Part shown: piece by piece, positions 32,924-64,000 of the stretch
How the letters are laid out: the number at the start of each line of letters is the position of its first letter
How positions within the stretch are numbered: the first letter of the stretch is position 1
DNA from: Escherichia phage vB_EcoM-LTH01
Strand: one strand, 5' to 3'
DNA: 64,000 nt
Sequence record: PP430345
Position numbers and translations under genes: made by a program
The notes under the pieces: generated by a model
Told to the model about the DNA's origin: nothing
Seen by the model: only the letters and a program-made list of their open reading frames with translations
The model's database searches: none

Positions 32924-33160
32924 ATGTGGCCTTTTAAAAAGAAAGAAACTGAAGAAAACAAACCAAGTTGTAAACATGATTTTGTCATTACTCAATGTAA
33001 TCAAGTTACAAAGGTAATGTCTCGCTTCTACGATACAGAAGAGATCAAGACAACAGTTGTGTCACGTATTTGTCGGCAATGCCTTGTACAAGAGGCTCAC
33101 ACTGTTCCAGGTCACATTGATTATTCTAAAGCTTTAAATATTTTTGGAGGTACTCGATGA
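32924..33160 (+). CDS. hypothetical Cys-containing protein (78 aa)
   Basis: ORF with AGGAG ribosome-binding site. Confidence 0.5.
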   Translation: MWPFKKKETEENKPSCKHDFVITQCNQVTKVMSRFYDTEEIKTTVVSRICRQCLVQEAHTVPGHIDYSKALNIFGGTR

Positions 33161-33543
33161 GTTTATCAAAAAATAGAAAAGAGTTTAATGAATTTATTGA
33201 CAGCTTGGCAGGAAAGCCTTATATTAATGCCATCGTCTCTAAATATCCTTTGGCGCATCTGACCTTTGTTCCAGAAAAGCGATTGTACCAACTGGAAGAG
33301 GATGAAGTATTTTGCTGTACGTGCGGTTGTGGTGAGGTAAAACCTATTATGGTCCCTTACCCAACATTGAGTGTTGTATCACATACCGACGGACTGGAGG
33401 AGGCAGTAATCCACGGTTTTTGGGTATCACCTTGTAAACAAAAAAGTTCTTTTGATGATGAAGGTATTGTTGAATACTATGACATTGAAGTATTCAATGA
33501 TAAAACTGGTGAAATTGTTAAAGTGGAGATCAATTACGAATGA
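33157..33543 (+). CDS. hypothetical protein (128 aa) with CCTCGCG cluster
   Basis: ORF. Confidence 0.55.
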   Translation: MSLSKNRKEFNEFIDSLAGKPYINAIVSKYPLAHLTFVPEKRLYQLEEDEVFCCTCGCGEVKPIMVPYPTLSVVSHTDGLEEAVIHGFWVSPCKQKSSFDDEGIVEYYDIEVFNDKTGEIVKVEINYE

Positions 33544-33857
33544 AAATTGTATGGGGTTTTACTAAAATAATCTTTATGATCCTGTGCCTTGCTGTACTAA
33601 ACCCACATCGTTTACTGCTGGCCTTGATTCACCTTTTAGCTGCAATATTTAGTTTTATCGCTTGGCGACTAGAAGACCTCGCGGGCTTTATGGGGAAGTG
33701 CGTTAAGAAAGGCATGAAGAAATTCTGGCTTTTTGGTGAGAAGTTATTATCTGAGCCTTTACATAAGGAAATCGAAAAGCTGGATATTATTTTGAAGGCC
33801 GCAGAAAAGAAACTCAATCCGAATAATGTTGACAAGGAAAAGGATGATGGTGTATAA
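33540..33857 (+). CDS. membrane protein (105 aa)
   Basis: Hydrophobic N-terminal helices. Confidence 0.55.
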   Translation: MKIVWGFTKIIFMILCLAVLNPHRLLLALIHLLAAIFSFIAWRLEDLAGFMGKCVKKGMKKFWLFGEKLLSEPLHKEIEKLDIILKAAEKKLNPNNVDKEKDDGV

Positions 33858-34050
33858 AGTATTCTGCGAATGGGATATTGGTCAAGAAGGTATTGCATTT
33901 GTTTCAGAAAAGGCAGCACTCAATTGGATAGAGGGTCAAAAAGATATTCTTCTGTCTGACATTGATGAGACTATAAAAAGTCTTATGAAGCAACGTCTTT
34001 TAGTTATTGAGCCACTAATTGTTATTGATGAAAAAGGAGAAAGAGTATGA
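33826..34050 (+). CDS. hypothetical protein (74 aa; start uncertain)
   Basis: ORF. Confidence 0.45.
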   Translation: MLTRKRMMVYKVFCEWDIGQEGIAFVSEKAALNWIEGQKDILLSDIDETIKSLMKQRLLVIEPLIVIDEKGERV

Positions 34051-34655
34051 TCAAGAAGTTTGTTGCTTGGGTAAAATCGCTGTTTATTCCTCTGGAAGTA
34101 GAAACTGCGGCGATCGACAAGTATATTGCAAAGCAGGCCGAACAGCGTAAGGAGACTGAAAGCGTTAAATTCGGCCCAGTTGAAACACGCGATCTGGAAG
34201 AACCATTAAAAGAAAATGAGGTATTGGTTGGGGTAAACATCAAAGATAAGACGATGAAGGTTGTTGATATCTCTGTTGAACGACCAAAATCACAGGCTAC
34301 GCCGCCGAAACCGTTGGATGAACAACTGAAGGGTGTTGAATTACCGTCCTATGCTCAAGGTAAGAAATTACCACCGAAGGCAAAGCGACAGTATATTGAT
34401 CAGGCCCGTCGGGCAGCACCACGTAAGATGAGCGACTCTCCAAATGGGTATGGAACTAGCCAGGTTGATCCTCAGGTGGCAGCTTTAGGTGGTGTGGCAA
34501 CGTATACTGCTGTAATGTCCTCCAGTGAAGATCGTACAAGTAGTTCAAGTTCTCACTGTTCTTCAAGTCGGTCAAGTTCGTATGATAGCTCATCATCGTA
34601 TGATAGTTATTCTTCTGATAGTAGCAGCAGTAGTTCTTCAAGCAGTTGTGATTGA
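34047..34655 (+). CDS. hypothetical protein (202 aa) with a Ser-rich low-complexity C-terminal tail
   Basis: Last ~46 residues (from SSSEDRTS to SSSSSSCD) are about 70% Ser, with Tyr/Asp interspersed. Confidence 0.6.
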   Translation: MIKKFVAWVKSLFIPLEVETAAIDKYIAKQAEQRKETESVKFGPVETRDLEEPLKENEVLVGVNIKDKTMKVVDISVERPKSQATPPKPLDEQLKGVELPSYAQGKKLPPKAKRQYIDQARRAAPRKMSDSPNGYGTSQVDPQVAALGGVATYTAVMSSSEDRTSSSSSHCSSSRSSSYDSSSSYDSYSSDSSSSSSSSSCD

Positions 34656-34722
34656 TATTTAAGAGAGGGGCCGAAAGGCTCCTCACATCGGGAGTAAGAG
34701 TTTTAATTAGAGGAGTGATGAA

Positions 34723-35124
34723 ATGCGTAAAGTATACCCTAAGAAGCCAAATGCCACTAAAACCCCACGCTACGGTTCTGAAGAATGTCCGCGAATCACG
34801 GATGAAGAATCTCGTATCGTTAAGGAAAATTTTGCAGAAATATTTTTGTTTGGTCCCACTAATAATGATCCGTACACTCTGTTGGCTGAACGTTTAGGCT
34901 CAGATCGCAATCGAGCAAAAACTGTATACTATGCTTGGGTTTATCGACAGAAAGGTCATTATTTTCGTCATGTTACTCGGGAGCGTCAAGTTCGTTCACG
35001 TTTAGTCTGTCGTATCAAAAAGTACACAGAATTCTTAAACAATCCAGAAACTATCTATCAGATTATGTGTCGTGCAGAAGATGAGGTTGACGAACTGATT
35101 GCTAAGGGGACTATCAAACAATGA
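34723..35124 (+). CDS. hypothetical protein (133 aa)
   Basis: ORF with GGAG ribosome-binding site. Confidence 0.6.
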   Translation: MRKVYPKKPNATKTPRYGSEECPRITDEESRIVKENFAEIFLFGPTNNDPYTLLAERLGSDRNRAKTVYYAWVYRQKGHYFRHVTRERQVRSRLVCRIKKYTEFLNNPETIYQIMCRAEDEVDELIAKGTIKQ

Positions 35125-35276
35125 TGATTTCTCCAGAGATTTTTGTAACGTTTTTCATTATGGTTTCTCTTGCAGGATCAAGGTTTTTACCTTTCAACGT
35201 ACTAAGTGCGACATGGTTCATACTTGGGACAATATTTGCAGTAGAGACTACAAAATATTTTGGAGGTAGCTATTGA
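35124..35276 (+). CDS. possible small membrane protein (50 aa)
   Basis: TGATG-coupled start, hydrophobic; not in the supplied track. Confidence 0.35.
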   Translation: MISPEIFVTFFIMVSLAGSRFLPFNVLSATWFILGTIFAVETTKYFGGSY

Positions 35277-35572
35277 AAAGGTTAATCATTTTATGTATAC
35301 TTCTTCTTGTTGGTTGCGGAGAGGGTGAAGATGAGCAGACAAAGCGATACAAAAATCTACCTTCTCTGATGCCAACAGAGGTTAAGGAGTTACACGAATT
35401 TTGCAAGAAGCAACACAATTATTACAACAGTTATGCGGTTGTTGTTGATGGTGAAGCAAAATCTGTAATTTGCAAGTTCAAAGATAGTGAACGTGAAAAA
35501 GGTATCTCCTCAGGTTATACGTGGGATGCTCAAAGTTTAAGAGATAAAATGAAGGGGGTTAAAAATGAGTAA
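35273..35572 (+). CDS. putative lipoprotein (99 aa, TTG start)
   Basis: GGAGG ribosome-binding site; signal peptide with lipobox LVGC. Confidence 0.55.
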   Translation: MKRLIILCILLLVGCGEGEDEQTKRYKNLPSLMPTEVKELHEFCKKQHNYYNSYAVVVDGEAKSVICKFKDSEREKGISSGYTWDAQSLRDKMKGVKNE

Positions 35573-35753
35573 TGATCTTAGTTCACATGCGGTAATGGGA
35601 CCTGGTGGTGCACTGATCGGGATCGCAATCACAAAAGGTATTGCAAATGAAATTATCATGGAGTTTCAAAAGAAAGGTCGAACGGGTTACTATGCAACCC
35701 CTGTAGAAAGTTGGATGTTAGATTACTTTAAAGACGATACCGAGGAGGCTTAA
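35565..35753 (+). CDS. hypothetical protein (62 aa)
   Basis: ORF. Confidence 0.5.
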   Translation: MSNDLSSHAVMGPGGALIGIAITKGIANEIIMEFQKKGRTGYYATPVESWMLDYFKDDTEEA

Positions 35754-36340
35754 TGGAATACATTAGTTGGTTGTTTATCTTATCTGCGTGGGTTATCTTT
35801 GCTATCTGGTTAGCCCCTGTGATCATCGCTTTCCGTCGTAATCACAAGAACAAGGTTGTAATTTTAGCTTTGTCATTCTTTACTTCAATGATCCCTTACC
35901 CGCTTGCATTGTTTGCTTGTTGGATAGTTCTGTTGGCTTGGTCATTGTATAAAGTTTCAGTGGTCAATGATGGCTCAAAGTCTGCATATTTAGATTCTAA
36001 GTATCTTGAGTATGCAAAAGGACCGCAAGGTTTACCTGGTCCAATGGGTCCCCGTGGAGAGTCTGCTTATGAAACATACCTGAGAATTCTTCGTAAAGAA
36101 GATCCTAGCGCTATCCCACTAAATGAGAAGGATTGGCTGGATAGTTTAAAAGGGTTGGATGGTGACAAAGGTGATCGAGGGCCATCTGCATACGATCTGT
36201 ATTGCTTATCTGTATGGTCCAAAGGTGATGGTAAAGTACCTCTGTCTTTAGATGAGTGGCTAGAATCTCTCCGTGGTAAAGATGCAGACGAATTACCTTT
36301 ATCTAAAAAAGGTGTCGTTAGTCCACCAAAACGTCCTTGA
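35753..36340 (+). CDS. membrane-anchored protein with a tail-fibre-like repeat domain
   Basis: N-terminal hydrophobic helices; then GPQGLPGPMGPRG and two repeats of the SAYE/D.Y...(D/E)WL(D/E)SL(K/R)G type. Confidence 0.6.
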   Translation: MEYISWLFILSAWVIFAIWLAPVIIAFRRNHKNKVVILALSFFTSMIPYPLALFACWIVLLAWSLYKVSVVNDGSKSAYLDSKYLEYAKGPQGLPGPMGPRGESAYETYLRILRKEDPSAIPLNEKDWLDSLKGLDGDKGDRGPSAYDLYCLSVWSKGDGKVPLSLDEWLESLRGKDADELPLSKKGVVSPPKRP

Positions 36341-36394
36341 CAGAAAGTTAAGTGTGGGGCATAATGGCCCCACTTAAACAACAGAGGAAAGAAG

Positions 36395-36775
36395 ATGAGT
36401 ATTTTTGACGGTAAAGATTATTTGGTTGCTGATTGGATTCCTATCTCTGCGACACGTAACATTCACATTTACGATGGTGTTAAGAATTTGAATACGACGA
36501 TCATCTACACAAACAGTGAAGAAGACCGTGAAATGCAAATCATGAGTGTCTTCGGTATTGATGATGAGAATAAGATTGAAAAAGGTCGTGCTCGTATTGG
36601 TATCGACATTTTCGACCTGTCTGGTGACCAAAGTGCAGATCCCGTAAACATTGACCGTTCTCGTGTGTTTGCTCACAAAGAAGAACAATTTACGGAAGAA
36701 CTTATTAAAGACTTGCAGATGATCAACACTTTGTTTGATAATGTTCATGAAAAAGTTAAGCGAGTTTATCTCTAA
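36395..36775 (+). CDS. hypothetical protein (126 aa)
   Basis: ORF with GAGGAAAG ribosome-binding site. Confidence 0.6.
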   Translation: MSIFDGKDYLVADWIPISATRNIHIYDGVKNLNTTIIYTNSEEDREMQIMSVFGIDDENKIEKGRARIGIDIFDLSGDQSADPVNIDRSRVFAHKEEQFTEELIKDLQMINTLFDNVHEKVKRVYL

Positions 36776-36858
36776 AAGTTGTTTGCAATTCAAATAAGTT
36801 AGTTGTAATATAGTTTCTCGGCCTTAAGTGGTGTGTTCAATAGTTAAAGGAGATTTAA

Positions 36859-38034
36859 ATGTCTGAAGTTAAAGTTATCAATGCTGTATACGATGCTGTT
36901 TCCGATACCACAGTAAACATTGCAGCAGGTACGATTGAACGTATCCTCATTAAACGTATTAATGAAGATGGTAGTCCACGCGTTACCACCTTTAAAGATA
37001 AGAATACAGGTCAGCAAAAAAGCATTAACAATACCCACCGCTATGCAGTTCTTCTGAAAGAAGGTGAAGACCAGGCTTGGATTTCTTTTGGTGAAGGTGA
37101 AGTTAAAAACCTGAAGTATGAGAATCAGTTCCAGATTAAAAATCCTGAAGGTGGTTACACTGATCTTAAAGAAGGTATGAAAATTCGCTTACCTGTTGTT
37201 ATCAAGACCTACACCAAACAAGATGGTAGTCAGGGTTCTTCTACGGAAGGTAAGAAAGCACGTATCAAGATTACTGACGCATCCGGTGCTCGTGAGCCTC
37301 GTCAGCAACAGCAGCAATCAAGTGGTTCCCAACAGCAGCAAAAGCCGTCTGGTGGTGCAGCTAAGAAGATTTATGGTGATATCACATCTATCGAAGGCAA
37401 TAAGGTAGTTGTTAAGCTGGAAGACGGCACAGAAGTTACTGTAAACCTCACTGATGAACAGACGGGTCAGATTACAGAAGGTGGTCGTATTGCAGGTGTT
37501 CGTTCAGATGATGGTACGGTTACAAGCTTTAAAGCTTACGGTCCAAAAGGTGCAAATACTGGAACAGGATCACGTTCAGGTAAAGGTAAAGACGATCTGC
37601 CTATTCGTTTAGGTAATGCACTGTCTATCACAGATGCGATGTTCCCGAATGAAACGATCGCAAATCAGGGTATTGTTGTAGAGCAAGTTCTTGCAGCGAT
37701 GGACTCCATTAAAGCAAAACTTCGCGAAGAGTTTAAATCTATGGATGATTATTCTTTTGGTGCTCGTTTAGGCCAGTGTGGTATTCTTTCTGCCCGTTGG
37801 GGAAGTAATAACATTGAAACGTTTATTGCTAAAACAGAAGAGAATTTCCGATTTATCTGTCAGTTGGAAGATAAGATCCGTAACGGGGCTTCAACCCCTA
37901 AGCAAGAAGAAAAGAAATCTGAGCCGGAACCGCAGTTAACTCCGTCAGCAGAAGATTCACCTACACCTGATATCGAAGGCCATGTGAATATGTCTGTAGA
38001 TGATATGGATTTTGACGACGATATTCCGTTTTGA
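36859..38034 (+). CDS. ssb: single-stranded DNA-binding protein (unusually long, 391 aa, Gln-rich linker)
   Basis: C-terminal acidic tail DDMDFDDDIPF matches the conserved bacterial SSB tip (DDDIPF); AAGGAG ribosome-binding site; last gene of the plus block. Confidence 0.7.
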   Translation: MSEVKVINAVYDAVSDTTVNIAAGTIERILIKRINEDGSPRVTTFKDKNTGQQKSINNTHRYAVLLKEGEDQAWISFGEGEVKNLKYENQFQIKNPEGGYTDLKEGMKIRLPVVIKTYTKQDGSQGSSTEGKKARIKITDASGAREPRQQQQQSSGSQQQQKPSGGAAKKIYGDITSIEGNKVVVKLEDGTEVTVNLTDEQTGQITEGGRIAGVRSDDGTVTSFKAYGPKGANTGTGSRSGKGKDDLPIRLGNALSITDAMFPNETIANQGIVVEQVLAAMDSIKAKLREEFKSMDDYSFGARLGQCGILSARWGSNNIETFIAKTEENFRFICQLEDKIRNGASTPKQEEKKSEPEPQLTPSAEDSPTPDIEGHVNMSVDDMDFDDDIPF

Positions 38035-38048
38035 TCGTAAAATTTAGA

Positions 38049-38084
38049 TAAAAATAAAGGCGCTCATTTGAGCGCCTTTTCTTT
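38049..38084. terminator. bidirectional rho-independent terminator between the convergent plus and minus blocks
   Basis: AAAGGCGCTCA-TTT-GAGCGCCTTT flanked by an A-tract and a T-tract. Confidence 0.7.
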
Positions 38085-39318
38085 ATGCTGGAATAACTAT
38101 ACCTTCCAAGTTAAACTTCTGAGCTATCGTATTAGAGGCCGTAAAGTCAGCAGGGTACATAGCCCCTGTGTAACCTCTCCCTGTCCAGTAAAGATTACCA
38201 TTGCCACTAACAATTACTTTAAAAGTGTCAGCCAATGAGCCAGTCATATGGAGAATGCCGCCATCATCTATAATATCTTGATGTATGCTTTCAAAAGATG
38301 TTGCGTTGGTGGTTATAGGAAGATCTCTAAATAAGGAGTATGTGTATCCACCTTGTCCACCTGTCGATTGATAAACTCCATTAACCCTGTCAGAGATGAA
38401 TACTTGCAGTGCTGCCCTAGTGCTCACACTTGCGTTTGTATAACTGATCTGGTTAGTTAGGTAAACTTCAACTCCAGCAGGAATGCTTGCCATAGGTGCT
38501 AAATTAGGACCGAGGACGTTGGTTGAGTTTATCCCTGCTCTTGCTGCCGATCCAACTGCATCCCATGACCCATCTTCCCTCTGTGCAACAATAAGTATAA
38601 TAGATTGAGCACCTGAACCGCCAGCCGTGTTAGCCACTTGACCACGAGCACATTTTGCCCTAATATATCTTACAGAAGGGTCCCCAATAGTTGTCCAAGT
38701 TGATAATATTGTTCCGGCAGAAGTACCTGCTACTTGATCTACACCATTGTCGCCTCGGTATTTTAAAGTCCCATCAACCTCGACACGAATAGCATTATAG
38801 TTTGCAAAATACAGATATTTTGTTTTTTCACCCCAAGCTATTTGGGGTCCGTCTGGAAGAAGTCTATAAACAGTGCCGTCAGGTTGGATCGCATATGATC
38901 TAGCTATTTGTATTGCGGAAGATAAGATATTTACGCCGTCAACAATGTATGCAGATTCAGGCAAGACGTTCCAACTGTTTTGGAGAGTTGTGTCAACAGC
39001 GGGGAAGATTACGGCAGAGATATATTCATAGTGGTTATTATTTTTCTTAACCCATACACCGCCGTACAGTGTACTGTCTGTGCCTGCCTCATAAACTTCT
39101 TCGACACCCGTGTTAGTGAGTGTCCATCCAGAAGTTGCATTATTTGTGGTCCCTGTTTTACCAAGCCCGTTTAAATAATTAGATCCGGTTACATACAGAT
39201 GCCCATTAGTAAGCAAAATAAAAATATTTCCTGTACTGGTGCTTACGGCATATTTGATTGTAACGCCTACAGGCAGCGGAACACCGCCGCCGAAGTTAAT
39301 AATTGGAAAAGGGATCAT
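38083..39318 (-). CDS. putative distal tail fibre / receptor-binding protein (411 aa)
   Basis: Last gene of the structural operon, next to the 1077-aa fibre gene; Gly/Thr/Asn/Tyr-rich beta-type composition. Confidence 0.4.
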   Translation of the reverse strand: MIPFPIINFGGGVPLPVGVTIKYAVSTSTGNIFILLTNGHLYVTGSNYLNGLGKTGTTNNATSGWTLTNTGVEEVYEAGTDSTLYGGVWVKKNNNHYEYISAVIFPAVDTTLQNSWNVLPESAYIVDGVNILSSAIQIARSYAIQPDGTVYRLLPDGPQIAWGEKTKYLYFANYNAIRVEVDGTLKYRGDNGVDQVAGTSAGTILSTWTTIGDPSVRYIRAKCARGQVANTAGGSGAQSIILIVAQREDGSWDAVGSAARAGINSTNVLGPNLAPMASIPAGVEVYLTNQISYTNASVSTRAALQVFISDRVNGVYQSTGGQGGYTYSLFRDLPITTNATSFESIHQDIIDDGGILHMTGSLADTFKVIVSGNGNLYWTGRGYTGAMYPADFTASNTIAQKFNLEGIVIPA

Positions 39319-39356
39319 TTATCCTCCTAAAAAGAAAAGGCCCCGAAGGGCCTCTA

Positions 39357-42300
39357 TTAGCGACGAGTGATGAATACGTCAATCAATGGGCCTTTGCCAC
39401 GATAAACCATGTTAACTACCGATACAGTGTTTGCATCTGTGTTGATGGTTTCAGTACCGTGTACAACAAACTCCGATCCGAATGTTACCGCATGTCCACC
39501 TGTACCATCCTGTTCAAAGAAGAGGAACACTGACTCACCTTTTCCTGAACTCAACAGGCCAATCGGTGCTTTCACTTCAACATCATTTATAACGTTTACG
39601 TTATATATGCTCGTTGAGCCGTCTGGGATATAAGAAGAAGAGGTGGTGCTTACTTCTTTTGGTGTGGTGCTGAACTTGCTTGCGGAAATGGCGTTTTCAG
39701 AACTAAGGGATTGAACATTTAACGGTACAGTCGGGATATTAAACTGACCAGTTACAGTCAGGTCTGTTATGTTCGCCGTCGTTAACGTAGCTGTCGTGGT
39801 AGACAAAGATGCAGGCTCGATCGCCTTTCCAGACAAGTCGATATTGCCAGAGATGTTACCAACAACAGTCAGGTTTCCACCAACTCGAAGGTTCTTGTTG
39901 ATGTTTGCACCGGAAAGAGAAGTTATCCCGTATGTAGGTGCACCTTCATAATCTTCACCGAATGTACCAGATAATCCAGTTACCGATGTACGAGACTCAA
40001 TGGAAAGGGCACTTACTGTTCCCGTTGAGGTCATAGAAGCAACGTTAACGTCTTGAGAGCTAAGGTCAATGTTGCCAGTTACAGTTCCTGTTACGTTAAG
40101 GTCGCCCTGAATCTCACCTGGTCCACGAACTTCAAGAGCAGGATCACTAGACCCGACAGTACGAGTGATAACCGTGTTACCTGAAGTTACTTTACCAGCA
40201 CGGATATCATCGGTGATGACTTGATCAATGTTGCCTATCCCTGAAACCTCTAAGCTTCCTGCCATTACTTGTCCAGTTGAAATCAAAGAACCAACTTCAG
40301 CTTGACCTGTGGCAACAATTGCAGTAGTCTGAATCTCAACTTGAGCGGTTACGCTACGGGGAGAGATATCTTTACCGTTTATGCTTTCCGCTGTCCCTAA
40401 GGCGTTACCATTCGCGTCCAGAAGAGATCCAAATACCTGTACGTCATTGAAGCTTGCTTGACCTTGAACAGATGTGATATTACCAGCGGTGATAGTCAAA
40501 CCATCATTTAAGGTAACAGCACCTTCCAAGAGGCTAGTCTCTTCGACACGTAGCGTTTTAGTTCTCACAGACGTTGCAGACTGCACACTATTTGGAAGAA
40601 TGTCTTGACCAGTGACGTTTGCAAAGAATTGCTCACCATTGGCATTTGTCAGGTTTCCAGTTACCTGAAGATCTACCGTAGTAATCTTTTGATTGTTGGT
40701 TATGTTATTAGCAGTAACCTCGTCAAAAGTTGATCCACGAGTAACCGTCAGGGTATTAACCTGAATGTCCCGCCCAGTGAGGTCTACTTCAAAACCTGTT
40801 ACAGTTCCCGTGATTGTCAGGTTATTTACCTGAGTTTCTCCAGTGGCTGTCAGGTTTGCCGTTGTAACGCTCTCAGAAGCTTCTACAGACGTTGTTTCCA
40901 CAGAGGATGGGAGAATGTCTTGTCCGTCAACATTTCCCGTTACAGTGATTCCTGTGGTGGTTCCTGTGACTACAAGATTGTTAACCGTTGTGGTCGAAGT
41001 TGTTCCTGCGGTAATGTCGCCACTAACTGAGAGGCTCGCACCATCAATTGCAGCAGCCGTTATGTCCCCAGTATCTAAGCTTTGGATACTTAACTCACCG
41101 TCTAGAGTAATATCACCACGAACACGCATGTTGTTACCAACATCGATGTTTCCTGTGGTTGTCACCGAAGAAGGAGAGATTGCTTCACCATCAATAGAGA
41201 CTGTAACTCCCGTCAGGTTTCCAGTGATCTCAAGATCCTTGATCGTTGCCTTGTTAGTCACTGTCAGATCTTGGAATTCAACAGCAGAAGTTCCAAAGTC
41301 GATATCGGCCCTGAGTGTTCCATTAACCGTCAGGTTGTTTACCGTAACATCGCCGGAAGCAGTAGTAGGTCCAGTAATGTTTAAGCTCTCTGCCACAGTA
41401 ACAGATGTTGCACTCACATTACGAGGGGAAATGTCTTTCCCGTCAACACCGATTCCAGCACCCGTGAGAGTACCTTCGATTCTTACATTTTTCAATACTG
41501 TATTGCCAGCAACGGCAAGATCTGCACCGAGAGTTGTATTTCCCTTGACCTCCGCAGTTCTTTCAACCACAATGCTGTTAGGATTAATATCCAGACCTTC
41601 AACGTCAGCCTTCAATCCTTCAATGGTGTTCGTCACACGAAGAGTATTTATTTCCGCAATACCGTCAACGATCAGCTGTGGGCGGTCTTCTGCGTTATTG
41701 GCATTACCCTCTAAGTGAAGATAGTCACCTTGCATGAATCCATCAACATCAAGAGAATTCGTGGAAACAGAGGTATTTCCAACCTTGATCTCTCTCGCAG
41801 TTATATTATCGCTATCAACAACACCAGTGGTGACTTGGAAAGGCTTTATATTTGTTCTTTTGGTTAACCCTGCCTGGGGTGGAACGCCATTTTGTTCAAA
41901 TGCGATTTCTGCGTCTGTGCCTGTCATTCGTAATCTTTTTAAAGATAATTCGGCATCAAGAGCAGCGATCCTGTCGCCAGTGAAGATGGTTTCTCCACTT
42001 ACATAGAGATCTTTCAGACTCGCATCATCTGCAACGATAATGTTTTGGAATTCACCTTTGGACTCTTCAAGAACCTCACCACGTACTTTTTCTATTTCTC
42101 GGCTAACCCAAGCGGTGTTCGCGATAGTAAATGAGCTATCACCTTCAGCAGCAAGAGGTACAGTAGGGTTTCCACGGAAGACAGGGGAAAGGATAGGGGC
42201 GTAAGTTTCTTGAATGTTACCTTTATCGAAGAAAGGTCTGAACTTCCCGTCGTTGATCGGACTGTCTCGCATAACGACAGGGGTACTAGTAGTTGCACCT

Positions 42301-44227: not shown

Positions 44228-45862
44228 TTAGCCCTCCACCGTTACCCATACGCCAGACATACGCTTCTGGATTGGTTTGTAATAACCTTGGTTTAATCCA
44301 AGTCCCGCTGAAACAACACCAGTGATTACGCAACCTGCCGGAGCACGTACAGGACTGGTATAGTTGTCCCCATTCATTGTCGTTTGTTGCTCAATACCTA
44401 AACGAACATCTTCGATAGTTTGAACAACTACGGCTGGAATAACTGTAACCTGCCTTGTTGCTTGGATTCCCGTAATAGATCCACGAACAGTAATAACAGC
44501 AGTACCTGGAGCAACACCCGATACATATCCACTTTGTGTAACGACAGCAACGTTAGCATTACTGGTGGAATACACTAGCGGCTCGTTGGAGTTGGCAGGT
44601 GTTCTGTTAACAGGGATCACTTCAGAATCGTTAACTTCCACACTAGGGATGCTGCCGATACTGATCGCTGTCAATGGTGTGTATGAAACTATTTTAACCT
44701 GTGCCGATATACCTGTGGAGATAGAGGCAATGATGTTAGTTTCACCTGGTCCAGTCAATCTTACATTACCAGCGCTATCCACGGTTGCAACATTACCATT
44801 CTGAGAGGTCCAAGTAACAGGATATTGGCTCGCCAAGTTTGCAGGGAGAACTTGAGCAGATATCCCTTGGGTAAAACCTACACGATTTGTAATGCTATCT
44901 GGTGTAGTAACAAGTGCAGTTGGTGACAGACTTCCAGTACCTTGTGCCTGATCAGTCTTGATAATGTACATCACTGCGACGTTCTTAGGTCTGTTTTCCG
45001 GTGCAGTCGGAACTACACGGCTTGCATCGAATCGAACATCACCTGCTGGGTTTTTACGATCGTGGTCAGGACCCGAGTTTGAGTTATATTGCGTATAAAG
45101 CGCACCTTGTTCACGATAACCGTGATCAGTACGGATACTTTCGTAACCCATTACACCCGTAATGTTTCGAATCGCATCACCTTGAATAGAACCTAAAGCA
45201 CGACCAGAGTCAGGGTCGTAAGCTCCAGATCCGTGCGCCCATCCACGAAGGAACAATCCACGATAATCAGGGACTACGTTTCGTCCTAAAACTTGGTACA
45301 GTCGTGGGTTCTGAGATGTACTGAATACTTGCCCGTTACACTCCAAGAATCCCGCCGGAGGAACTTGACCAGCCCAAGTAAGAATTGCACCAATCGGAAC
45401 CAGACGAGGCTCAAGCTCATCAATACGTGCGTTTAATCGGGAAACTGCATTATCTAAGTCTTGAGATAAACGAGTAACACGCTGATCAACCGCAGTGATC
45501 TCACGACGAAGATCTGCAACAGTCTGCTCTACATAAGTTCTTAAAGTTGCAACAGATTGTCTTACGTTCGCAACATCTTCACGAATAACTTCCAGTTGAT
45601 TGTTTACTCGTGTTTCGAGTTCCTGAATCAGTCGCTTGTATTCTTCTTCAACCTCTGGAAACTTCTCTTCTACGATCCAATTAAGCCAAGCACCAGACTG
45701 GTGAAGAATATAGTTGAATTCTTCTGCCGCTGGTTTTTGCCCTTTGTCATAGCCCTTTGCTAAAAGGTCATCAATCGGTTTTGATTTGTTAGGTCTTCCA
45801 GTACCAGGAAGGTTAACATCTTGTGCCGCAAAGACAACAATCGGTGTTGTTGGTCTAGCCAT
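44228..45862 (-). CDS. tail fibre protein with coiled-coil, phage tail collar domain and two BIG2-like Ig domains
   Basis: PIGAILTWAGQVPPAGFLECNGQ...NPRLYQVLG...VPDYRGLFLRGW (collar-domain pattern); TSQNGNVATVDSAGNVRLTG and SNANVAVVTQSGYVSGVAPGTAVITV (BIG2-like). Confidence 0.7.
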   Translation of the reverse strand: MARPTTPIVVFAAQDVNLPGTGRPNKSKPIDDLLAKGYDKGQKPAAEEFNYILHQSGAWLNWIVEEKFPEVEEEYKRLIQELETRVNNQLEVIREDVANVRQSVATLRTYVEQTVADLRREITAVDQRVTRLSQDLDNAVSRLNARIDELEPRLVPIGAILTWAGQVPPAGFLECNGQVFSTSQNPRLYQVLGRNVVPDYRGLFLRGWAHGSGAYDPDSGRALGSIQGDAIRNITGVMGYESIRTDHGYREQGALYTQYNSNSGPDHDRKNPAGDVRFDASRVVPTAPENRPKNVAVMYIIKTDQAQGTGSLSPTALVTTPDSITNRVGFTQGISAQVLPANLASQYPVTWTSQNGNVATVDSAGNVRLTGPGETNIIASISTGISAQVKIVSYTPLTAISIGSIPSVEVNDSEVIPVNRTPANSNEPLVYSTSNANVAVVTQSGYVSGVAPGTAVITVRGSITGIQATRQVTVIPAVVVQTIEDVRLGIEQQTTMNGDNYTSPVRAPAGCVITGVVSAGLGLNQGYYKPIQKRMSGVWVTVEG

Positions 45863-51592: not shown

Positions 51593-54016
51593 TTATTGGT
51601 TACCACCCTGAGTGAGCAGGTTGATATTGAATCCGTTCTCTTCATCCACAATTGCACGGATATATTGACGAATCTCTCCACTCTTGATCTCAACGGTGAT
51701 CTTACCTTCAGGTGGTGCTGCTGGAGTTTCCAGAGGAAATCCGCTAGGGCGAATACCAGATGGAGTCGAGATAGTGTTAGGATCTACAGTTATGTCACGA
51801 GAGCCACCAAACAACTCTCTGAACACATCAGTTAACCCGACAGGTTGTGGAGTTACACCATATTGCTGCTGGAAAGCTGTTGCGTCAAGCCCTGCTCCAG
51901 CCAATCGGCTCTCTCCACTTTGGATAAAGCGGTCATTGATTTCTGACCCTGCTGAATAAAGCGTACCAAGGCCAAAAAGATTACCAAGCTTACCAAGTTG
52001 ACTGAATCTTCCAGCTACACTTGTCTTACCTGGGGTAGTTGCGCCACCAGAGGCTGTGGTGTTTGCACCAGTTGTGGTTTTTCCACCCGTAGCTAAATCT
52101 CCACCAAGGGTTCCACGAATCTCCTTAAGTGCACCTTTTAATCCTGCAATCTTAGCTAGGATATTAAACACTTTAGTTAGACCGCCGAGGAACAATCCGA
52201 TACCAAGGAGATAAGAACCCCAATCAAACACTTGACGAAGAGTATCACCTTCAACACCTATTTTCTTGAAGTAATAAGACACCACACGATCCAAAAGGAC
52301 AAGGTTATCATGTATTTCAAGAACCATGTCTGTAAATCCTTCAATTACGTTACCGAAGAATCTACCGATGGTGCTTGCAACGTTACCATTACTTGATAGG
52401 ATTGTAGCTAAGTTATTGAAAACTCTTGTCAGTTGTTCACCAAAGCCACCTTGGAATATTCTGTTTTGAAACTCTGCAAAAGTCTGAGTTAAACGCTGGT
52501 AAGCAACACGGTTACTTTCCAAAGCTTTATCCAGTGCACCACCTTTGTTAGCAGCCTCTGCATAGTATTTACCAACCAAAGGTATGATCTTGGAGGCTTT
52601 CAATTCACCATCTTCCATCAACTTCAACAATTTTGCAATGTCGATAGAGGTGTCGCCGAATGCTTCTTGAGTTGCTTTCAAGAATACCTGTAAAGAACCA
52701 GGAATTGCTTCAGCCAACTGACCCTTTAGTTCTTCAGCCATTACTTGACCTTTACCAAGGATCTGTTGAATTGCTGTAATGCCACGCTGATATCTTACAG
52801 GATCGACCTGAAGTGCGGTGGAATATTCAGAAAATGCACTAAATAATTCGTCTGTTTGAGATTTACTAATAACACCATCAGCAGAGATCGCTAACTGGGT
52901 AAATCCCTGCGATGCAGTTTTCAGATCCAAACCTAAACGGTATGCTTCGTCACGAACAAACTTAACACGCTGACCAGCTTCTTCTGCCGAATCAGAGATC
53001 AACAGAGATGTTGCATTGATTCCTTCGAAGAATTGACCTTGACGAGTTATTGATGCACCTGCTGAGAAAACTCCATATGCGGCAGTAGCACTTACCAAGC
53101 TGGAACGAACATCTTTAAGTGTGGAAGAGAAAGATCCAGCACTTGACTGTGCAGCACGGAATTGTCTTTCTAGCGCCTGTATGCTTTGACGATACTGCCC
53201 AGATGATAACGTACCAGCACGAAATTGTCTATTAAGATCTTCAATCCCACGACCTTCCGAGTCACGACCCAAAGCACCTGCATAACCACGACCATATCGA
53301 GAGGATAGACGAATACGTTGTTGTGCTGTAACATCATCAATACGGGCAGCAGCACGAGCAGCGCGGACACGTTCACGTTCCTGTTCTTGAGTTTGTTGCT
53401 TCTGCATTCTCTCTTTGATACGAGAACTACGTTGCATCGCTCTGTTTTGTGCAGCAATTAAATCAGGGTTGAATCGGCTATTAGGATCTCCAACAATACC
53501 TGACCCTGGCTCTCTGTTACCGCGAGATAATAATTGATTTGCAGCTTCCACACGTTGGATGTTGAAAGGCGGTAAAGGTGTCGCTGTACGGTTTGCAGAT
53601 CTTGCAGCAGCACGGGCAGCTTTCTCCTGTTCCTGATAGAACTTTCTCATCTCAGCAGAACCAGGGGATGCAGCCGTCAGGCTTTTAACCTGTTGTCGTA
53701 TTCTTGCAGCAGAAACCTTCTGAATTGCCTCTTTTGCCTTGGCTTCTTTCTTTGCCAGAGCAATACGATAATCAGTGGCCTTCTTCTCCTCACGCTTCCG
53801 AGTTTCTTCCAGACGTTTACTGACTAGTCTCATTTCACGAGCGGATTGTTTATAAGCCTCAGCAGGAGAATTCTTTCCGGCAGCGGTAGCCTCTGTTGAA
53901 GCCTTTTTCCATTCGTTGGAGAGTTTTCGGATCTCCTCACGAGCTTTTCGATAGGAACCTTTGTCAGTTTCAAATATGACTCGGTTCTTTGTTGTTGCAA
54001 TTACTTCAACAGCCAT
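51593..54016 (-). CDS. tail tape measure protein (807 aa)
   Basis: Long Ala/Gln/Arg-rich ORF immediately downstream of the frameshifted chaperone pair; Gly-rich C-terminal half. Confidence 0.7.
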   Translation of the reverse strand: MAVEVIATTKNRVIFETDKGSYRKAREEIRKLSNEWKKASTEATAAGKNSPAEAYKQSAREMRLVSKRLEETRKREEKKATDYRIALAKKEAKAKEAIQKVSAARIRQQVKSLTAASPGSAEMRKFYQEQEKAARAAARSANRTATPLPPFNIQRVEAANQLLSRGNREPGSGIVGDPNSRFNPDLIAAQNRAMQRSSRIKERMQKQQTQEQERERVRAARAAARIDDVTAQQRIRLSSRYGRGYAGALGRDSEGRGIEDLNRQFRAGTLSSGQYRQSIQALERQFRAAQSSAGSFSSTLKDVRSSLVSATAAYGVFSAGASITRQGQFFEGINATSLLISDSAEEAGQRVKFVRDEAYRLGLDLKTASQGFTQLAISADGVISKSQTDELFSAFSEYSTALQVDPVRYQRGITAIQQILGKGQVMAEELKGQLAEAIPGSLQVFLKATQEAFGDTSIDIAKLLKLMEDGELKASKIIPLVGKYYAEAANKGGALDKALESNRVAYQRLTQTFAEFQNRIFQGGFGEQLTRVFNNLATILSSNGNVASTIGRFFGNVIEGFTDMVLEIHDNLVLLDRVVSYYFKKIGVEGDTLRQVFDWGSYLLGIGLFLGGLTKVFNILAKIAGLKGALKEIRGTLGGDLATGGKTTTGANTTASGGATTPGKTSVAGRFSQLGKLGNLFGLGTLYSAGSEINDRFIQSGESRLAGAGLDATAFQQQYGVTPQPVGLTDVFRELFGGSRDITVDPNTISTPSGIRPSGFPLETPAAPPEGKITVEIKSGEIRQYIRAIVDEENGFNINLLTQGGNQ

Positions 54017-59153: not shown

Positions 59154-60851
59154 TTAATAGACATTACCGGTTTGAATAGTTTGTGTAGCTCCGTCAAAAA
59201 TACAAATAGAATATATTGACAATCTCCCACCTGTGTCACTTGAAGAAGATTTATTCATCGTTGCTGTTATCCAAACCCTCCAACAACTTCCGTCGTTATT
59301 GTCTGTAACAACAAGGTGCATTGTATCTGGATACCCTACAGTCGCCGACGCATTTTCAACATAAGCAACAGTATTGCTCAATGTTGCATTACTTACCCTC
59401 CCTGTTTTTATTCTATTAATATCCGTGTAGTTAGCCGTCAAGTACCATCCAAAATTTATTTGTCTGGAAGAAGACGATGTTCCTGCGGAGAAACCTACCT
59501 TAACTTGACTAGCCAAACCTGCGGCGTCAATAATAAGCCTTACATTACCATTATTAGTACCGGGTAAAGGTAACCACATTTTTTTAGTCCCAGTAGGTGT
59601 ATTATAAACCCCAGCTAAGGTAGGAGTAGCAGCTGGACCTACATCTCCTTTATCCCCTTTGTCCCCTTTCTCGCCCTTAGGACCTTGAGGGCCTATCATA
59701 CCTGCCGGACCTTGTGGTCCAATAGCACCTGTCTCCCCCTGAGGGCCAGTCGGACCCCTGATACCCTGAGGGCCAGCTATGCCTTGAGTGCCTTGAGGGC
59801 CTGCTGGGCCGATATCTCCTTTATCTCCCTTAGGACCTTGCGGACCCTCTGGGCCAGTTGGTCCTGCATCACCCTTCACTCCCTGGGGACCTTGTGGACC
59901 TTGAGGACCAGTCGGACCTATATTACCTTGAGGGCCAGTTGGACCCGTTGCACCAATTGGACCTTGAGGACCTTCAGGGCCTGCTGGACCTTCAGCGCCT
60001 ATATCCCCTTTAGGTCCTTGTGGTCCCATAGGACCCTGAGGTCCTTCAGCACCTTGATCACCTTTGGGACCAACAGCGCCTGCAATCCCCTGAATACCCT
60101 GGGGACCCTGAGGGCCTGTTGGCCCTTGTTCCCCCCTTGCACCTTGATCACCTTTTGGACCCTGCGGTCCTTGTGGACCTGTTGGCCCTTGAGATCCTTC
60201 TAAGGCTAAGATAACCCAATCTTCATTTGTACCAGGTTCTGAGCCAATACTGGCAGAACTGGCAAAATACGTTGAACCATTGTAAGAAACCGAATCATTT
60301 TCAGAATAAGATTCCTCAGCGTCCCAAGTACCTTTGAAAGTCAAACCAGCAGGGCCAACCTCACCTTTTTCCCCTTTAGGGCCTGTAAGTCCGATCGGTC
60401 CTTGCGGACCTTCTGCTCCAGTCTCACCCTTAGGACCTTCAGGGCCAACAAGTCCCTGAGGACCTTGCTCACCTTTTTGTCCTTGTGGCCCTTGCGGACC
60501 CATAGGTCCTTGAGGGCCAACAATACCAGCTGCCCCCGCTATACCTGCGGGACCTTGTTCTCCTTTATCACCCTTAGGACCTGTAAGGCCACGGACACCT
60601 TCATCTCCTTTGGGACCAATAGGACCTTGCGGTCCAATATCCCCTTTTGGACCCTGAGGGCCAGCAGGTCCAACTGGACCTTGTTCTCCCTGAGGTCCGC
60701 GAGGACCAGTGTTACCAACATCACCTTGTTCTCCGACACGGGAAAACAAATCTTTAAACAAATACCTCTTTCTTGCATTAAGATCGTAAACGGCAGTCCC
60801 GAAATAAACCCCGCTGTGATCTCCCGTAATACCTTTAGCTGTAGAAGGCAT
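59154..60851 (-). CDS. collagen-like fibre protein (565 aa) with an embedded carbohydrate-binding-like module and a C-terminal globular domain
   Basis: Long Gly-X-Y tracts ([20 protein letters not shown]...), interrupted by [39 protein letters not shown] (W...Y..GD.V.YNG..Y...W pattern), then ~150 aa without collagen repeats. Confidence 0.7.
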
Positions 60852-61547: not shown

Positions 61548-64000
61548 TTAACCTATAGTCATTGCTTGAGTACCCGTCAGGAACTCACCATCCCAGAACA
61601 AGGTCAGGATAGTGCGAGTAGCCCCGAGAGTAGGTGCTGTTCCGTTAGACCAAGCGATCTGGCTATCCCAGTTAATCTGACCACCGTTACCAGTGAATCG
61701 TAAGACTATGGTTTTAGCCCTTCCTGCTGGCAATCCGGTGATGACTAAGGATTTGTTGGTAGTCCCATCTAAAGTCCAAGCGTTACCTGTGCTTGCATCA
61801 ATTGCCCCTGTAGAAGCAACAACACGCAAATCGTACTGGTCCAGCTTAACCCATGCGCCGTTTTCACGAACATAGAACCCACCTTCCAGCGGTGCTTCCA
61901 GAACTGGAACCGTCAATGTAGACCAAGCACCATCTTTACGGACGTACTGGTTACCATCACGAGGTGCTTCCAGAACTTCTGCGGTAGGCAGTTCAGTCCA
62001 ATCACCGTCGGTACGGACATACAGCTTTCCGTCCCCTGGTGCGTCATACACGTTACCACCACCTAAGAATCCGAGCAGTGCCCAGTTCGTTGCGGAAGTT
62101 TTACGGTAATATTCCAGAGTGGAAGAGTTCAGGTACAAATCGTTAAGACGACCATCGCTAACCATCGGTGCACGAGGGAAAACAACCCACAATGTACCTT
62201 GATCACCTTTAGCACCTGTCGGACCAGAAGGGCCTTGCGGACCTTGGTTACCCGTTGGACCAACTGGTCCTACTGGACCTTGGATACGTCCTAAGTTTTC
62301 GTATGCTGCACCAGTCCAACCCCAGAAGTCACCTTGGATAAGATAACCTTGACCCAAAGTACCAGTTGAAGGTAATTCATCAGAGGTATCAAATCGACCA
62401 ATGATCTCTACACCAGGACCAATATCTCCCTGAGGACCTTGCTCACCCTGTGGGCCTTGGTCGCCTTGTGGTCCTACTTCACCACGTTCACCCTGAGGAC
62501 CTTGCTCCCCTTGTGGCCCTGTGGCTCCAGTATCACCTTTGTCACCTTTAGCGCCAGTCAATCCCTGAGGGCCCTGAGTACCCTGAGGACCTTGCTCCCC
62601 TTGTGGGCCACGGGCAACCCCAGCCTCTACAAAAGCAGTTCCGTCGAAAGCGTAACCGATCCCAGTGTCGTCTGTGACATAGAAATCACCTACAGCACCA
62701 GTTTGAGGAAGGTCTGCTTGAGATGGTACAGTTCCTTTAGGGATCAGGCCAGAGCCAACATCCCCCTTGTCGCCTTTGTCTCCTTTTGCACCAGTTTCAC
62801 CAGCAGGTCCTTGTGGTCCTTGGTCACCCGTAGAACCTTTCTCACCTTGTGGACCTTGAGGACCAACTTCTCCTTGAGGGCCGACCTCACCCTGCGGTCC
62901 GCGAACGGTTCCGGCAGAAACGAATTCCACGCCATCCCAAGCGTAACCGATCCCAGTGTCTTCAGCTACGTAGAAGTCACCTAATTCAGCAGTAGAAGGA
63001 AGTTCAGCGGAGGTTGCAACCAAACCTTTCAGCTTCAGTGCATCACCTGCGTCGCCTTTGTCTCCTTTGTCTCCTTTCTCACCAGTGTCGCCTTTGTCGC
63101 CCTTCAGACCCTGAGGTCCACGAGTAAGACCAGTCAGTACCCATGCAGTGCCATCCCAAGCATAACCATTACCTTCAGACTCTACAACGTAGAAGTCACC
63201 AGTGGTGGCATCGGCAGGAAGTGCTTCTTGAGTTGCAACAATACCACGAGCAACGATACCAATTCCAGTATCACCCTTATCACCCTTATCGCCCTTGTCA
63301 CCTTTTTCGCCAGTCTCACCCTGTGGACCAATACCACCTTGTGGACCAGTCTCACCTTGGGGGCCAGCAGGACCTTGTGCCCCTGTTGCACCCTGCGGTC
63401 CTTGTGCACCAGTCAGACCAATAGGACCTTGTGGACCTTGTGGTCCTACATCCCCTTGGGGACCTTTGATGTTACCAACGTTAGTCCACTGACCGCCAGT
63501 AAAGATATAAAGATCAGCTTCAATCAGATAAGCATCACCTTCACTAATACCAGTCTGAGGCAATTGGTCTTCGGAAGCTACTGAGCCAAGGATATTCAGA
63601 CCCGCACCAACAGGACCTTGTTCACCTTGTGGACCAGTTAATCCACGAGGGCCAGTTGCACCCACGTCACCTTTTTCACCCTTCAAGGTTGCAAGGTATT
63701 CATTAACTGAACCTTCGAAACCGTTAGCAACCGCGATAGTGTAGTTGTCGTCTCCTTTATCGCCTTTATCGCCTTTGTCCCCTTTATCGCCTTTATCACC
63801 CTTAGCACCAACTGGGCCTTGTGGGCCTTGGAAAGATCCCAAATCTTCCCAGTTACCAGTACCATCAGAAACGAAGACATTAGTTCCGATCAGGTAAGCA
63901 TCACCCGCATCAGCACCTGCTGGCAAACTTGCTTCATCGGCAACAGAACCTAAGATATTAATAGCGTTAGCATTCTTACCGTCAACACCAGGTTCACCCT
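61548..64000 (-). CDS. collagen-like modular fibre protein, 5'-partial (N-terminus lies beyond the window end)
   Basis: Frame stays open to position 64000; at least five repeats of a ~25-aa module (LP.TG..GD.Y......Y.W.G..W...G...GP.G) alternating with Gly-X-Y tracts; non-collagen C-terminal domain. Confidence 0.7.

Follow-up and report, generated by a model that had tools for sequence, protein, structure and literature searches.

The superinfection-exclusion protein Imm of phage T4 has been known since the 1960s–80s. A mechanism based on tape-measure binding was proposed for it only in a 2026 preprint (bioRxiv 10.64898/2026.03.06.709160), according to which Imm attaches to gp29, the tape-measure protein, at its helical-bundle domain and thereby blocks genome translocation; in the same preprint the substitutions R33A and W50A weaken exclusion, the surroundings of W50 form the loop contacting the tape-measure protein and, with reference to earlier work, the N-terminus is placed on the periplasmic side. 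T4 uses Imm and Spackle together (PMC7677548), and no functional study of Imm relatives outside the T-even phages was found in a literature search. Here an open reading frame (ORF) of Escherichia phage vB_EcoM-LTH01 (PP430345) is described, which lies at 35753–36340 on the + strand of a stretch of 64,000 nucleotides (the window, meaning the whole stretch that was analysed) and is complete with 195 amino acids (aa) plus stop, exactly the coordinates and length given by a sequence-only reading of the window that had been made without database searches. The product joins an Imm-like membrane part to a stalk of collagen-like runs and tail-fibre-type units and ends in a conserved motif. The chances are judged to be about even that it is a superinfection-exclusion protein of the inner membrane, of the same type as T4 Imm, with a fibre-derived stalk that presents a conserved peptide.

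The Imm-like membrane core (aa 1–67; 35753–35953, + strand) was delimited by hydropathy, by matches to PF14373 (Imm_superinfect) and PHROG 1039, and by hhalign comparison with T4 Imm (sequence from NC_000866). The sequence-only reading had proposed N-terminal transmembrane helices, and Kyte–Doolittle hydropathy gave two hydrophobic stretches (aa ~4–27 and ~35–66) with the basic loop RRNHKNK between them; the first stretch carries a conserved P22-x-I-I-A and the second a P-Y-P turn at residues 48–50. In the AF2 model the membrane part consisted of four helices (2–19, 21–28, 34–44 and 50–65; pLDDT 84–90). The family profile aligned with T4 Imm over 59 columns (aa 5–67 with Imm 7–67; probability 78%, E 1.8e-5), covering both hydrophobic stretches and placing P26 of T4 Imm opposite the invariant P22 and R33 opposite the conserved R29. 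In the family alignment I25, A26 and N33 were nearly invariant, and the P-x-(I/F)-I-A-x-x-R motif together with a short basic loop between two hydrophobic stretches was present in the ORF 35753–36340 product. PHROG 1039 ('immunity to superinfection') matched the core at E 2.7e-6 and PF14373 matched aa 18–43 at E 6.5e-4 (profile positions 1–26 of 42); 8 of 12 family members matched PF14373 at E<0.01 (best 1.8e-5), precomputed PF14373 annotation was found on the relatives P0154, P0157, P0161, P0162 and P0168, and the UniRef name of the homologue in phage PBES 02 is 'Superinfection immunity protein'. A profile search with the core only retrieved 52 proteins, 47 of them annotated with PF14373. Foldseek against viral models returned a match in Aeromonas phage pIS4-A, to its superinfection immunity protein (probability 0.93, rmsd 3.9 over 68 columns). 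Judged by these sequence comparisons, the membrane part (aa 5–67) is a remote homologue of T4 Imm and PF14373. The product was filed as a divergent sister subfamily of Imm_superinfect and not as a Pfam member, because its own PF14373 score lies below the gathering cut-off while most of its relatives match. The retrieved proteins with PF14373 annotation were 56–127 aa long, all of them at most 110 aa except that of Salmonella phage SSBI34 (P0157, 127 aa), which belongs to the same subfamily, and the only extra domain among them was one SHOCT.

The stalk that follows the core contains a degenerate remnant of a fibre-type unit (aa 75–90, SKSAYLDSKYLEYAKG; 35975–36022, + strand), recognised from sequence and alignment and carrying a 5-aa in-frame deletion in the related phages A73, W70 and A5-4. 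It continues with a collagen-like run of four Gly-X-Y triplets (aa 90–102, GPQGLPGPMGPRG; 36020–36058, + strand), the collagen-like segment already noticed in the sequence-only reading. Pfam Collagen (PF01391) scored 14.6 bits on the product (E 0.028) against a cut-off of 27.2; the runs have four and three triplets. The same model was matched by 5 of the 12 family members (best 6.5e-8). Two units of the type SAY..Y...WL.SL(K/R)G were found, unit 1 at aa 103–134 (ESAYETYLRILRKEDPSAIPLNEKDWLDSLKG; 36059–36154, + strand) and unit 2 at aa 144–175 (PSAYDLYCLSVWSKGDGKVPLSLDEWLESLRG; 36182–36277, + strand), each 32 aa long with a period of 41 aa, and are joined by the linker LDGDKGDRG (aa 135–143; 36155–36181, + strand), which makes three triplets if G134 is counted (GLDGDKGDRG). 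Unit 1 against unit 2 gave a BLOSUM62 local score of 60, whereas shuffled sequences gave 18.9 +/- 4.1 (n=20,000, none reaching 60; z about 10), so that the two repeats of SAYE.Y...EWL.SLKG type proposed from the letters alone held up. A helix-loop-helix was predicted by AF2 for each unit with low confidence (helices 105–116 and 125–131 in unit 1, 146–156 and 166–173 in unit 2). The last 20 residues form the C-terminal motif and basic tail (aa 176–195, KDADELPLSKKGVVSPPKRP; 36278–36337, + strand), delimited by family conservation.

Assignment of the repeats to the tail-fibre type was confirmed by sequence comparison. PHROG tail-fibre families matched aa 70–150, and an exhaustive phmmer search retrieved 295 proteins, mostly long, with up to 15–18 matched stretches each and E-values down to 1e-71; the best database matches were to long fibre proteins, in which the unit occurs as many as 21 times. 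The retrieved protein P0003 (1,418 aa) contains 21 units of the form SAY.xY....TP(L/K)S..DWL.SLKG with one to four Gly-X-Y triplets between them. In all, 130 distinct fibre-type units were collected, and both units of the ORF 35753–36340 product have the shared form (24–32 aa, S-A-Y-x-x-(Y/A)...(W/F)-(L/I)-x-S-L-(K/R)-G, with Gly-X-Y triplets on either side). Neither Pfam nor NCBIfam was found to have a model of the unit, and the PDB yielded neither a sequence match, with a single sequence or a 60-unit profile, nor a fold match; PF04328/KCU-star and the Lcl adhesin were tried as the family of the unit and rejected, their matches being weak and below threshold.

The repeat was compared with the fibre genes of the window, as the sequence-only reading had suggested. 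The large fibre gene at 61548–64000 (− strand) has one unit of a short type within the window, and three are present in its full-length orthologue in phage W70, W70_131; ORF 59154–60851 has collagen triplets only, and ORF 44228–45862 has neither collagen triplets nor a SAY...WL.SLKG unit. The C-terminal part of P0003 and P0004 recurs in the large fibre gene. In the W70 virion no fibre-like protein is more abundant than W70_131 (locus L012, 1504–5304), the counterpart of the gene at 61548–64000. The large fibre protein and W70_131 also carry three tandem foldon-like motifs AP.DG..YVR.DG.W (Pfam Fibritin_C 1.3e-10) and repeated 'GDxYxV...G..Y.W.G..W' modules between collagen runs, and the gene extends past the end of the window. 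Within the ORF 35753–36340 product, unit 1 has its nearest counterpart in the single unit of P0007 (58% identity), and unit 2 is closer to units of P0012, P0020 and P0160 than to unit 1. Recent tandem duplication of the units was rejected, since no DNA-level repeat was found between units 1 and 2 and each is nearer to units of other family members than to its partner. Recent copying from the phage's own fibre gene was likewise rejected, identity being only 32–56% and the fibre-gene units belonging to the short subtype.

The protein is one of a small subfamily whose genes are syntenic and which was found in Vequintavirinae-like phages only. Syntenic orthologues occur in Certrevirus (KaOmega gp38, CR9_038, CR3, CR8, PBES 02 and Pectobacterium phages) and also in Salmonella phage SSBI34 and metagenomic Vequintavirinae-like contigs. 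Three parts are common to all members, namely the Imm-like core, a stalk containing Gly-X-Y triplets and the C-terminal motif. The stalk varies from 24 to 114 aa with 4–13 Gly-X-Y triplets and 0, 1 or 2 fibre-type units, the longest among the members seen being that of the ORF 35753–36340 product; locus L010, of a close relative with the same gene order, encodes one unit. The C-terminal motif G(K/R)DADE(I/L)PLSKxGV is followed by 3–5 Lys/Arg, and over 12 members P182, S184 and G187 are invariant and D177, A178, L183 and V188 nearly so. It was limited to the subfamily among the 168 retrieved proteins and all ORFs of the window, and was found in no fibre protein and no other ORF of the window. 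As syntenic orthologues with 0 or 1 unit exist, the fibre-type units are dispensable for the family and look like modules of the stalk, not like a functional head. On sequence grounds the combination of Imm-like core, collagen/fibre-type stalk and conserved C-terminal motif is an unusual and previously undescribed variant; no description of such a protein was found in the searchable literature.

In the proposed mechanism, drawn by analogy with T4 Imm, the core (aa 1–67) would encounter, at the inner membrane, the tape-measure protein of a related phage that arrives later, and this contact, to judge from the homology, would stop the incoming DNA from crossing that membrane. The phage's own tape-measure protein (51593–54016, − strand; W70_120 in phage W70) has a hydrophobic helix at about aa 601–625, as would be expected of a membrane-inserting target, and is a candidate target of the putative exclusion protein. 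The C-terminal 128 residues would make up a stalk in segments, composed of Gly-X-Y triplets together with two helix-loop-helix units, and would end in KDADELPLSKKGV plus a basic tail. With the N-terminus out, the basic loop in and the C-terminus out, the stalk would lie in the periplasm; this placement is preferred because RRNHKNK falls inside by the positive-inside rule, the N-terminus of T4 Imm is reported to be outside and the canonical second stretch fits a single span. There it could add avidity for, or allow earlier contact with, an incoming tail tip. The units and their Gly-X-Y linkers match those of fibre proteins that bear foldons and hence are trimeric, and the stalk most likely would trimerise the protein and keep the conserved peptide off the membrane; as the collagen runs are short and AF2 confidence in the stalk is low, this trimerisation is something that we infer. 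The fibre-type units would then be interchangeable length modules and not the active part: being optional in the family, they are taken for spacers or oligomerisation modules, and the functional end of the extension is sought in the invariant C-terminal peptide. Of the two functions put forward in the sequence-only reading, superinfection exclusion thus gained support, although through the Imm-like membrane part and not through the fibre-like part, and receptor masking did not, the protein being predicted to sit in the inner membrane and resembling no receptor-binding domain. A bolder version, which we consider doubtful, makes the stalk a trimeric 'periplasmic antenna' reaching up to ~10–15 nm, whose PLSKxG-basic peptide would catch a superinfecting phage's tail tip, tape-measure protein or ejected DNA short of the inner membrane; lineages would adjust the stalk's length through exchange of collagen triplets and units with their own fibre genes; if true, exclusion proteins would borrow virion-fibre modules to fit the geometry of the injection machinery that they block.

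Several points weigh against an Imm-type exclusion protein with a periplasmic stalk. The PF14373 score was 20.0 bits, under the gathering cut-off of 27.9. The G-W-x-x-x-G-W centre of T4 Imm, which contains W50, is replaced by an insertion of 6–7 residues with a conserved P48 (SMIPYPL). The second hydrophobic stretch has 32 aa with a P-Y-P break and could be a re-entrant hairpin, which makes a stalk in the cytoplasm a genuine alternative. In the stalk AF2 pLDDT was below 60, and the collagen runs are short (four and three triplets). To our knowledge T4 Imm is the sole PF14373 protein that has been functionally tested, and for every member of the subfamily exclusion function and membrane location are predictions from sequence.

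If the second stretch does form a re-entrant hairpin, the protein could be a membrane tether with a cytoplasmic stalk; its basic tail would bind to DNA or to some partner in the cytoplasm, so that, for instance, phage replication or packaging is anchored there or incoming DNA is acted upon from within. This is held to be unlikely, even though the second stretch, at 31–32 aa with a central turn (P-Y-P here, G-V-P-G in P0161–P0165), exceeds the length of one span without reaching that of two, the C-terminus invariably finishes with 3–5 Lys/Arg, and fibre modules normally fold in the cytoplasm. In canonical PF14373 proteins the second stretch has 23–25 aa and fits a single span, and an outside N-terminus as in T4 Imm combined with a strongly basic loop inside puts the C-terminus outside; by the positive-inside rule, RRNHKNK followed by a long hydrophobic stretch also resembles an uncleaved signal-anchor that would export the part downstream of it. 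A similarly low probability is given to an envelope module in which the stalk bridges the inner membrane to the lipoprotein encoded upstream, to peptidoglycan or to the outer membrane, serving in envelope remodelling or masking (receptor masking or blocking of tail penetration, compare T5 Llp and T4 Spackle) or as a spanin-like bridge. In its favour, the lipoprotein gene (35273–35572, + strand; 99 aa, TTG start, lipobox LLVGC, Gly at +2, mature part with two conserved Cys) is kept in Septuagintavirus and Certrevirus as the gene directly upstream of the Imm-like one, with the lipoprotein stop overlapping the start of the Imm-like gene in the Certrevirus phages KaOmega and CR9; other small membrane proteins are encoded in the region, and the invariant peptide at the C-terminus has the look of a binding motif. 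Against this, the lipoprotein was not found upstream of the Imm-like homologue in the more distant locus L008, and the stalk length of 24–114 aa is too variable for a fixed ruler. Asp at +2 of a lipoprotein causes inner-membrane retention (the Lol-avoidance rule), and the Certrevirus lipoproteins have Asp there whereas that of the window has Gly, so that no consistent outer-membrane partner emerges. The lipoprotein-first gene order and the two hydrophobic stretches are also unlike i- and o-spanins. A two-component spanin was rejected on these grounds (two hydrophobic stretches, lipoprotein upstream, Asp+2 in Certrevirus) and because a separate Rz-like pair is annotated, with two endolysin candidates, elsewhere in the genome of Septuagintavirus KEC4 (PMC12942863).

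Small size, two hydrophobic stretches and a charged, basic C-terminus are traits that holins in general share with this product, but a holin or antiholin controlling lysis timing is a very improbable identity for it: the protein is homologous to Imm, and Imm is not the holin of T4; no endolysin or spanin gene adjoins, the neighbours being without lysis domains in Pfam and PHROGs. We also know of no holin with a 128-aa collagen/fibre-type extension. On the other side, no holin is annotated in Septuagintavirus, the papers on KEC4 (PMC12942863) and W70 (PMC11370258) mention none, and a review states that T4 Imm 'reportedly molecularly resembles a holin' (PMC6832632). The least credible account, at a very small probability, is that of a minor structural protein of the virion (fibre or whisker), to which the matches of the C-terminal half to tail-fibre PHROGs and multi-copy fibre proteins would point. 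The sequence-only reading had named presence in virions as evidence against its proposal, and the orthologue W70_103 is absent from the virion proteome of W70, in which 28 proteins were identified by ESI-MS/MS, including W70_106 and W70_107, encoded by genes following W70_103, and both collagen-like fibres (PMC11370258). Together with the Imm-like membrane core, the position in the non-structural strand block and the existence of orthologues without any fibre unit, this largely refutes a structural fibre protein, which was rejected on the proteome and the membrane core.

ORF 35753–36340 is a real gene under purifying selection that acts on every part. Its ATG overlaps the stop codon of an upstream 62-aa ORF (TAATG), and a Shine–Dalgarno-like GAGGAGG read from the sequence (35740–35746, + strand) ends 6 nt upstream of the ATG. 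Region 35000–37000 of the window was 94–96% identical to Escherichia phages UPEC06, A73, W70, A5-4 and A7_1, myoviruses of ~140 kb of the genus Septuagintavirus, subfamily Vequintavirinae (PMC11370258); the product was 91–97% identical to hypothetical proteins of these five phages, and 'hypothetical protein' was the GenBank label in all related-phage records examined. Against UPEC06, omega was 0.19 for the whole ORF, 0.05 for the membrane part, 0.13 for the units and 0.28 for aa 75–90, the fastest-evolving part, and the C-terminal 20 aa showed no substitutions.

The gene lies near the end of a non-structural + strand block, downstream of the DNA polymerase gene with which the block begins; the label 'early/middle' that the sequence-only reading attached to it is only positional. 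Two further genes and a likely bidirectional terminator separate it from the convergent structural block, the terminator being a hairpin at 38056–38079 with a perfect 10-bp stem and T-runs on both strands, situated between the non-structural (+) and structural (−) blocks. Directly 5' of the ORF lie the genes for a 51-aa two-helix membrane protein, the lipoprotein with two conserved Cys and the 62-aa protein. The lipoprotein corresponds to PHROG 15849 (function unknown) and matches no named family; it is a possible partner of the Imm-like protein, as we infer from its position, and a candidate second exclusion or envelope factor. The predicted 51-aa membrane protein (35121–35276, + strand) has two hydrophobic helices and corresponds to PHROG 22594, and a further predicted membrane protein of 105 aa (33540–33857, + strand) to PHROG 5603; the block around ORF 35753–36340 looks like a cluster of envelope-directed genes. 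At 34047–34655 (+ strand) a 202-aa protein (PHROG 13005) is encoded whose C-terminal ~50 aa are nearly all Ser with few Cys, Tyr and Asp (SSSSSSHCSSSRSSSYDSSSSYDSYSSDSSSSSSSSSCD). A promoter-like site, TTGACA-17-CATAAT (11/12), overlaps the stop codon of ORF 35753–36340, and is followed by a GC-rich hairpin GTGGGGC..GCCCCAC without a T-run (36354–36373) just 5' of the DUF7325 gene at 36395, site and hairpin together covering 36337–36373; in the promoter and terminator scan of the region site counts were not above those of shuffles, an Rfam scan of 33000–39500 gave no match, and neither did the defence-system models of PADLOC. In Certrevirus an extra gene for a protein of ~215 aa, function unknown, lies between the Imm-like and DUF7325 genes (locus L003 3330–3983 and locus L004 3317–3961; KaOmega gp37, CR9_037), and is not present at the equivalent position in the window. 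The 391-aa product of 36859–38034 (+ strand; PHROG 4477, function unknown, 'hypothetical' in GenBank) has a Gln/Gly/Ser-rich middle and ends in ...MSVDDMDFDDDIPF, which we take to be the same acidic tip as the C-terminus of the E. coli single-strand-binding protein (SSB; MDFDDDIPF); it may be a phage single-strand-binding protein or an SSB-tail mimic that recruits host SSB partners.

The subfamily offers natural variants of one core that differ in stalk length (24–114 aa) and keep the C-terminal peptide strictly conserved; phages of E. coli K-12 that carry such genes (W70, A73, A5-4) are easy to handle. With these it can be asked whether Imm-type exclusion operates in other myoviruses, what an extra-membrane extension contributes, and whether a protein outside the virion can use fibre modules as portable devices for trimerisation or spacing. 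In practical terms, exclusion genes of the Imm kind shape the joint behaviour of phages in cocktails.

Among known systems, T5 Llp and T4 Spackle are small, exported, periplasmic exclusion proteins and in this resemble the neighbouring lipoprotein rather than the Imm-like protein itself; the lipoprotein matches no named family, so a functional link would be no more than presumptive. By analogy only, Ltp of Streptococcus phage TP-J34 is likewise a membrane-anchored exclusion protein targeting the tape-measure protein, and it has tandem small helical repeats outside the membrane. HK97 gp15, again by analogy only, is membrane-anchored and proposed to stop DNA entry via the incoming tape-measure protein (as cited in bioRxiv 10.64898/2026.03.06.709160). 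Both differ from the ORF 35753–36340 product in being prophage-expressed, no sequence relationship to either was found, and Ltp is a lipoprotein of a Gram-positive host. The collagen-like phage fibres (such as W70_131, P0003, P0004 and PHROGs 3904, 4440, 15437 and 19976) share the 24–32-aa SAY..(Y/A)...WL.SLKG unit with 1–4 Gly-X-Y triplets between units; they are, however, virion proteins of 450–2,800 aa with foldon or receptor-binding ends and no membrane anchor, whereas the present protein has only two units, 32–56% identical to the genus's own fibre units and grafted onto a membrane core. The closest likeness is to T4 Imm, whose core is homologous over ~60 residues with both hydrophobic stretches, the P-x-x-I-A-x-x-R motif and the short basic loop, and which is likewise encoded on the DNA polymerase strand, downstream of the polymerase, in a virulent myovirus; a block of genome translocation at the inner membrane via the tape-measure protein is the presumed shared action. 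The two differ in that the W50 loop of T4 Imm is replaced here by the 6–7-aa insertion, and in that T4 Imm has 83 aa and no extension, whereas the ORF 35753–36340 product has 195 aa with a C-terminal extension of 128 aa and a conserved motif.

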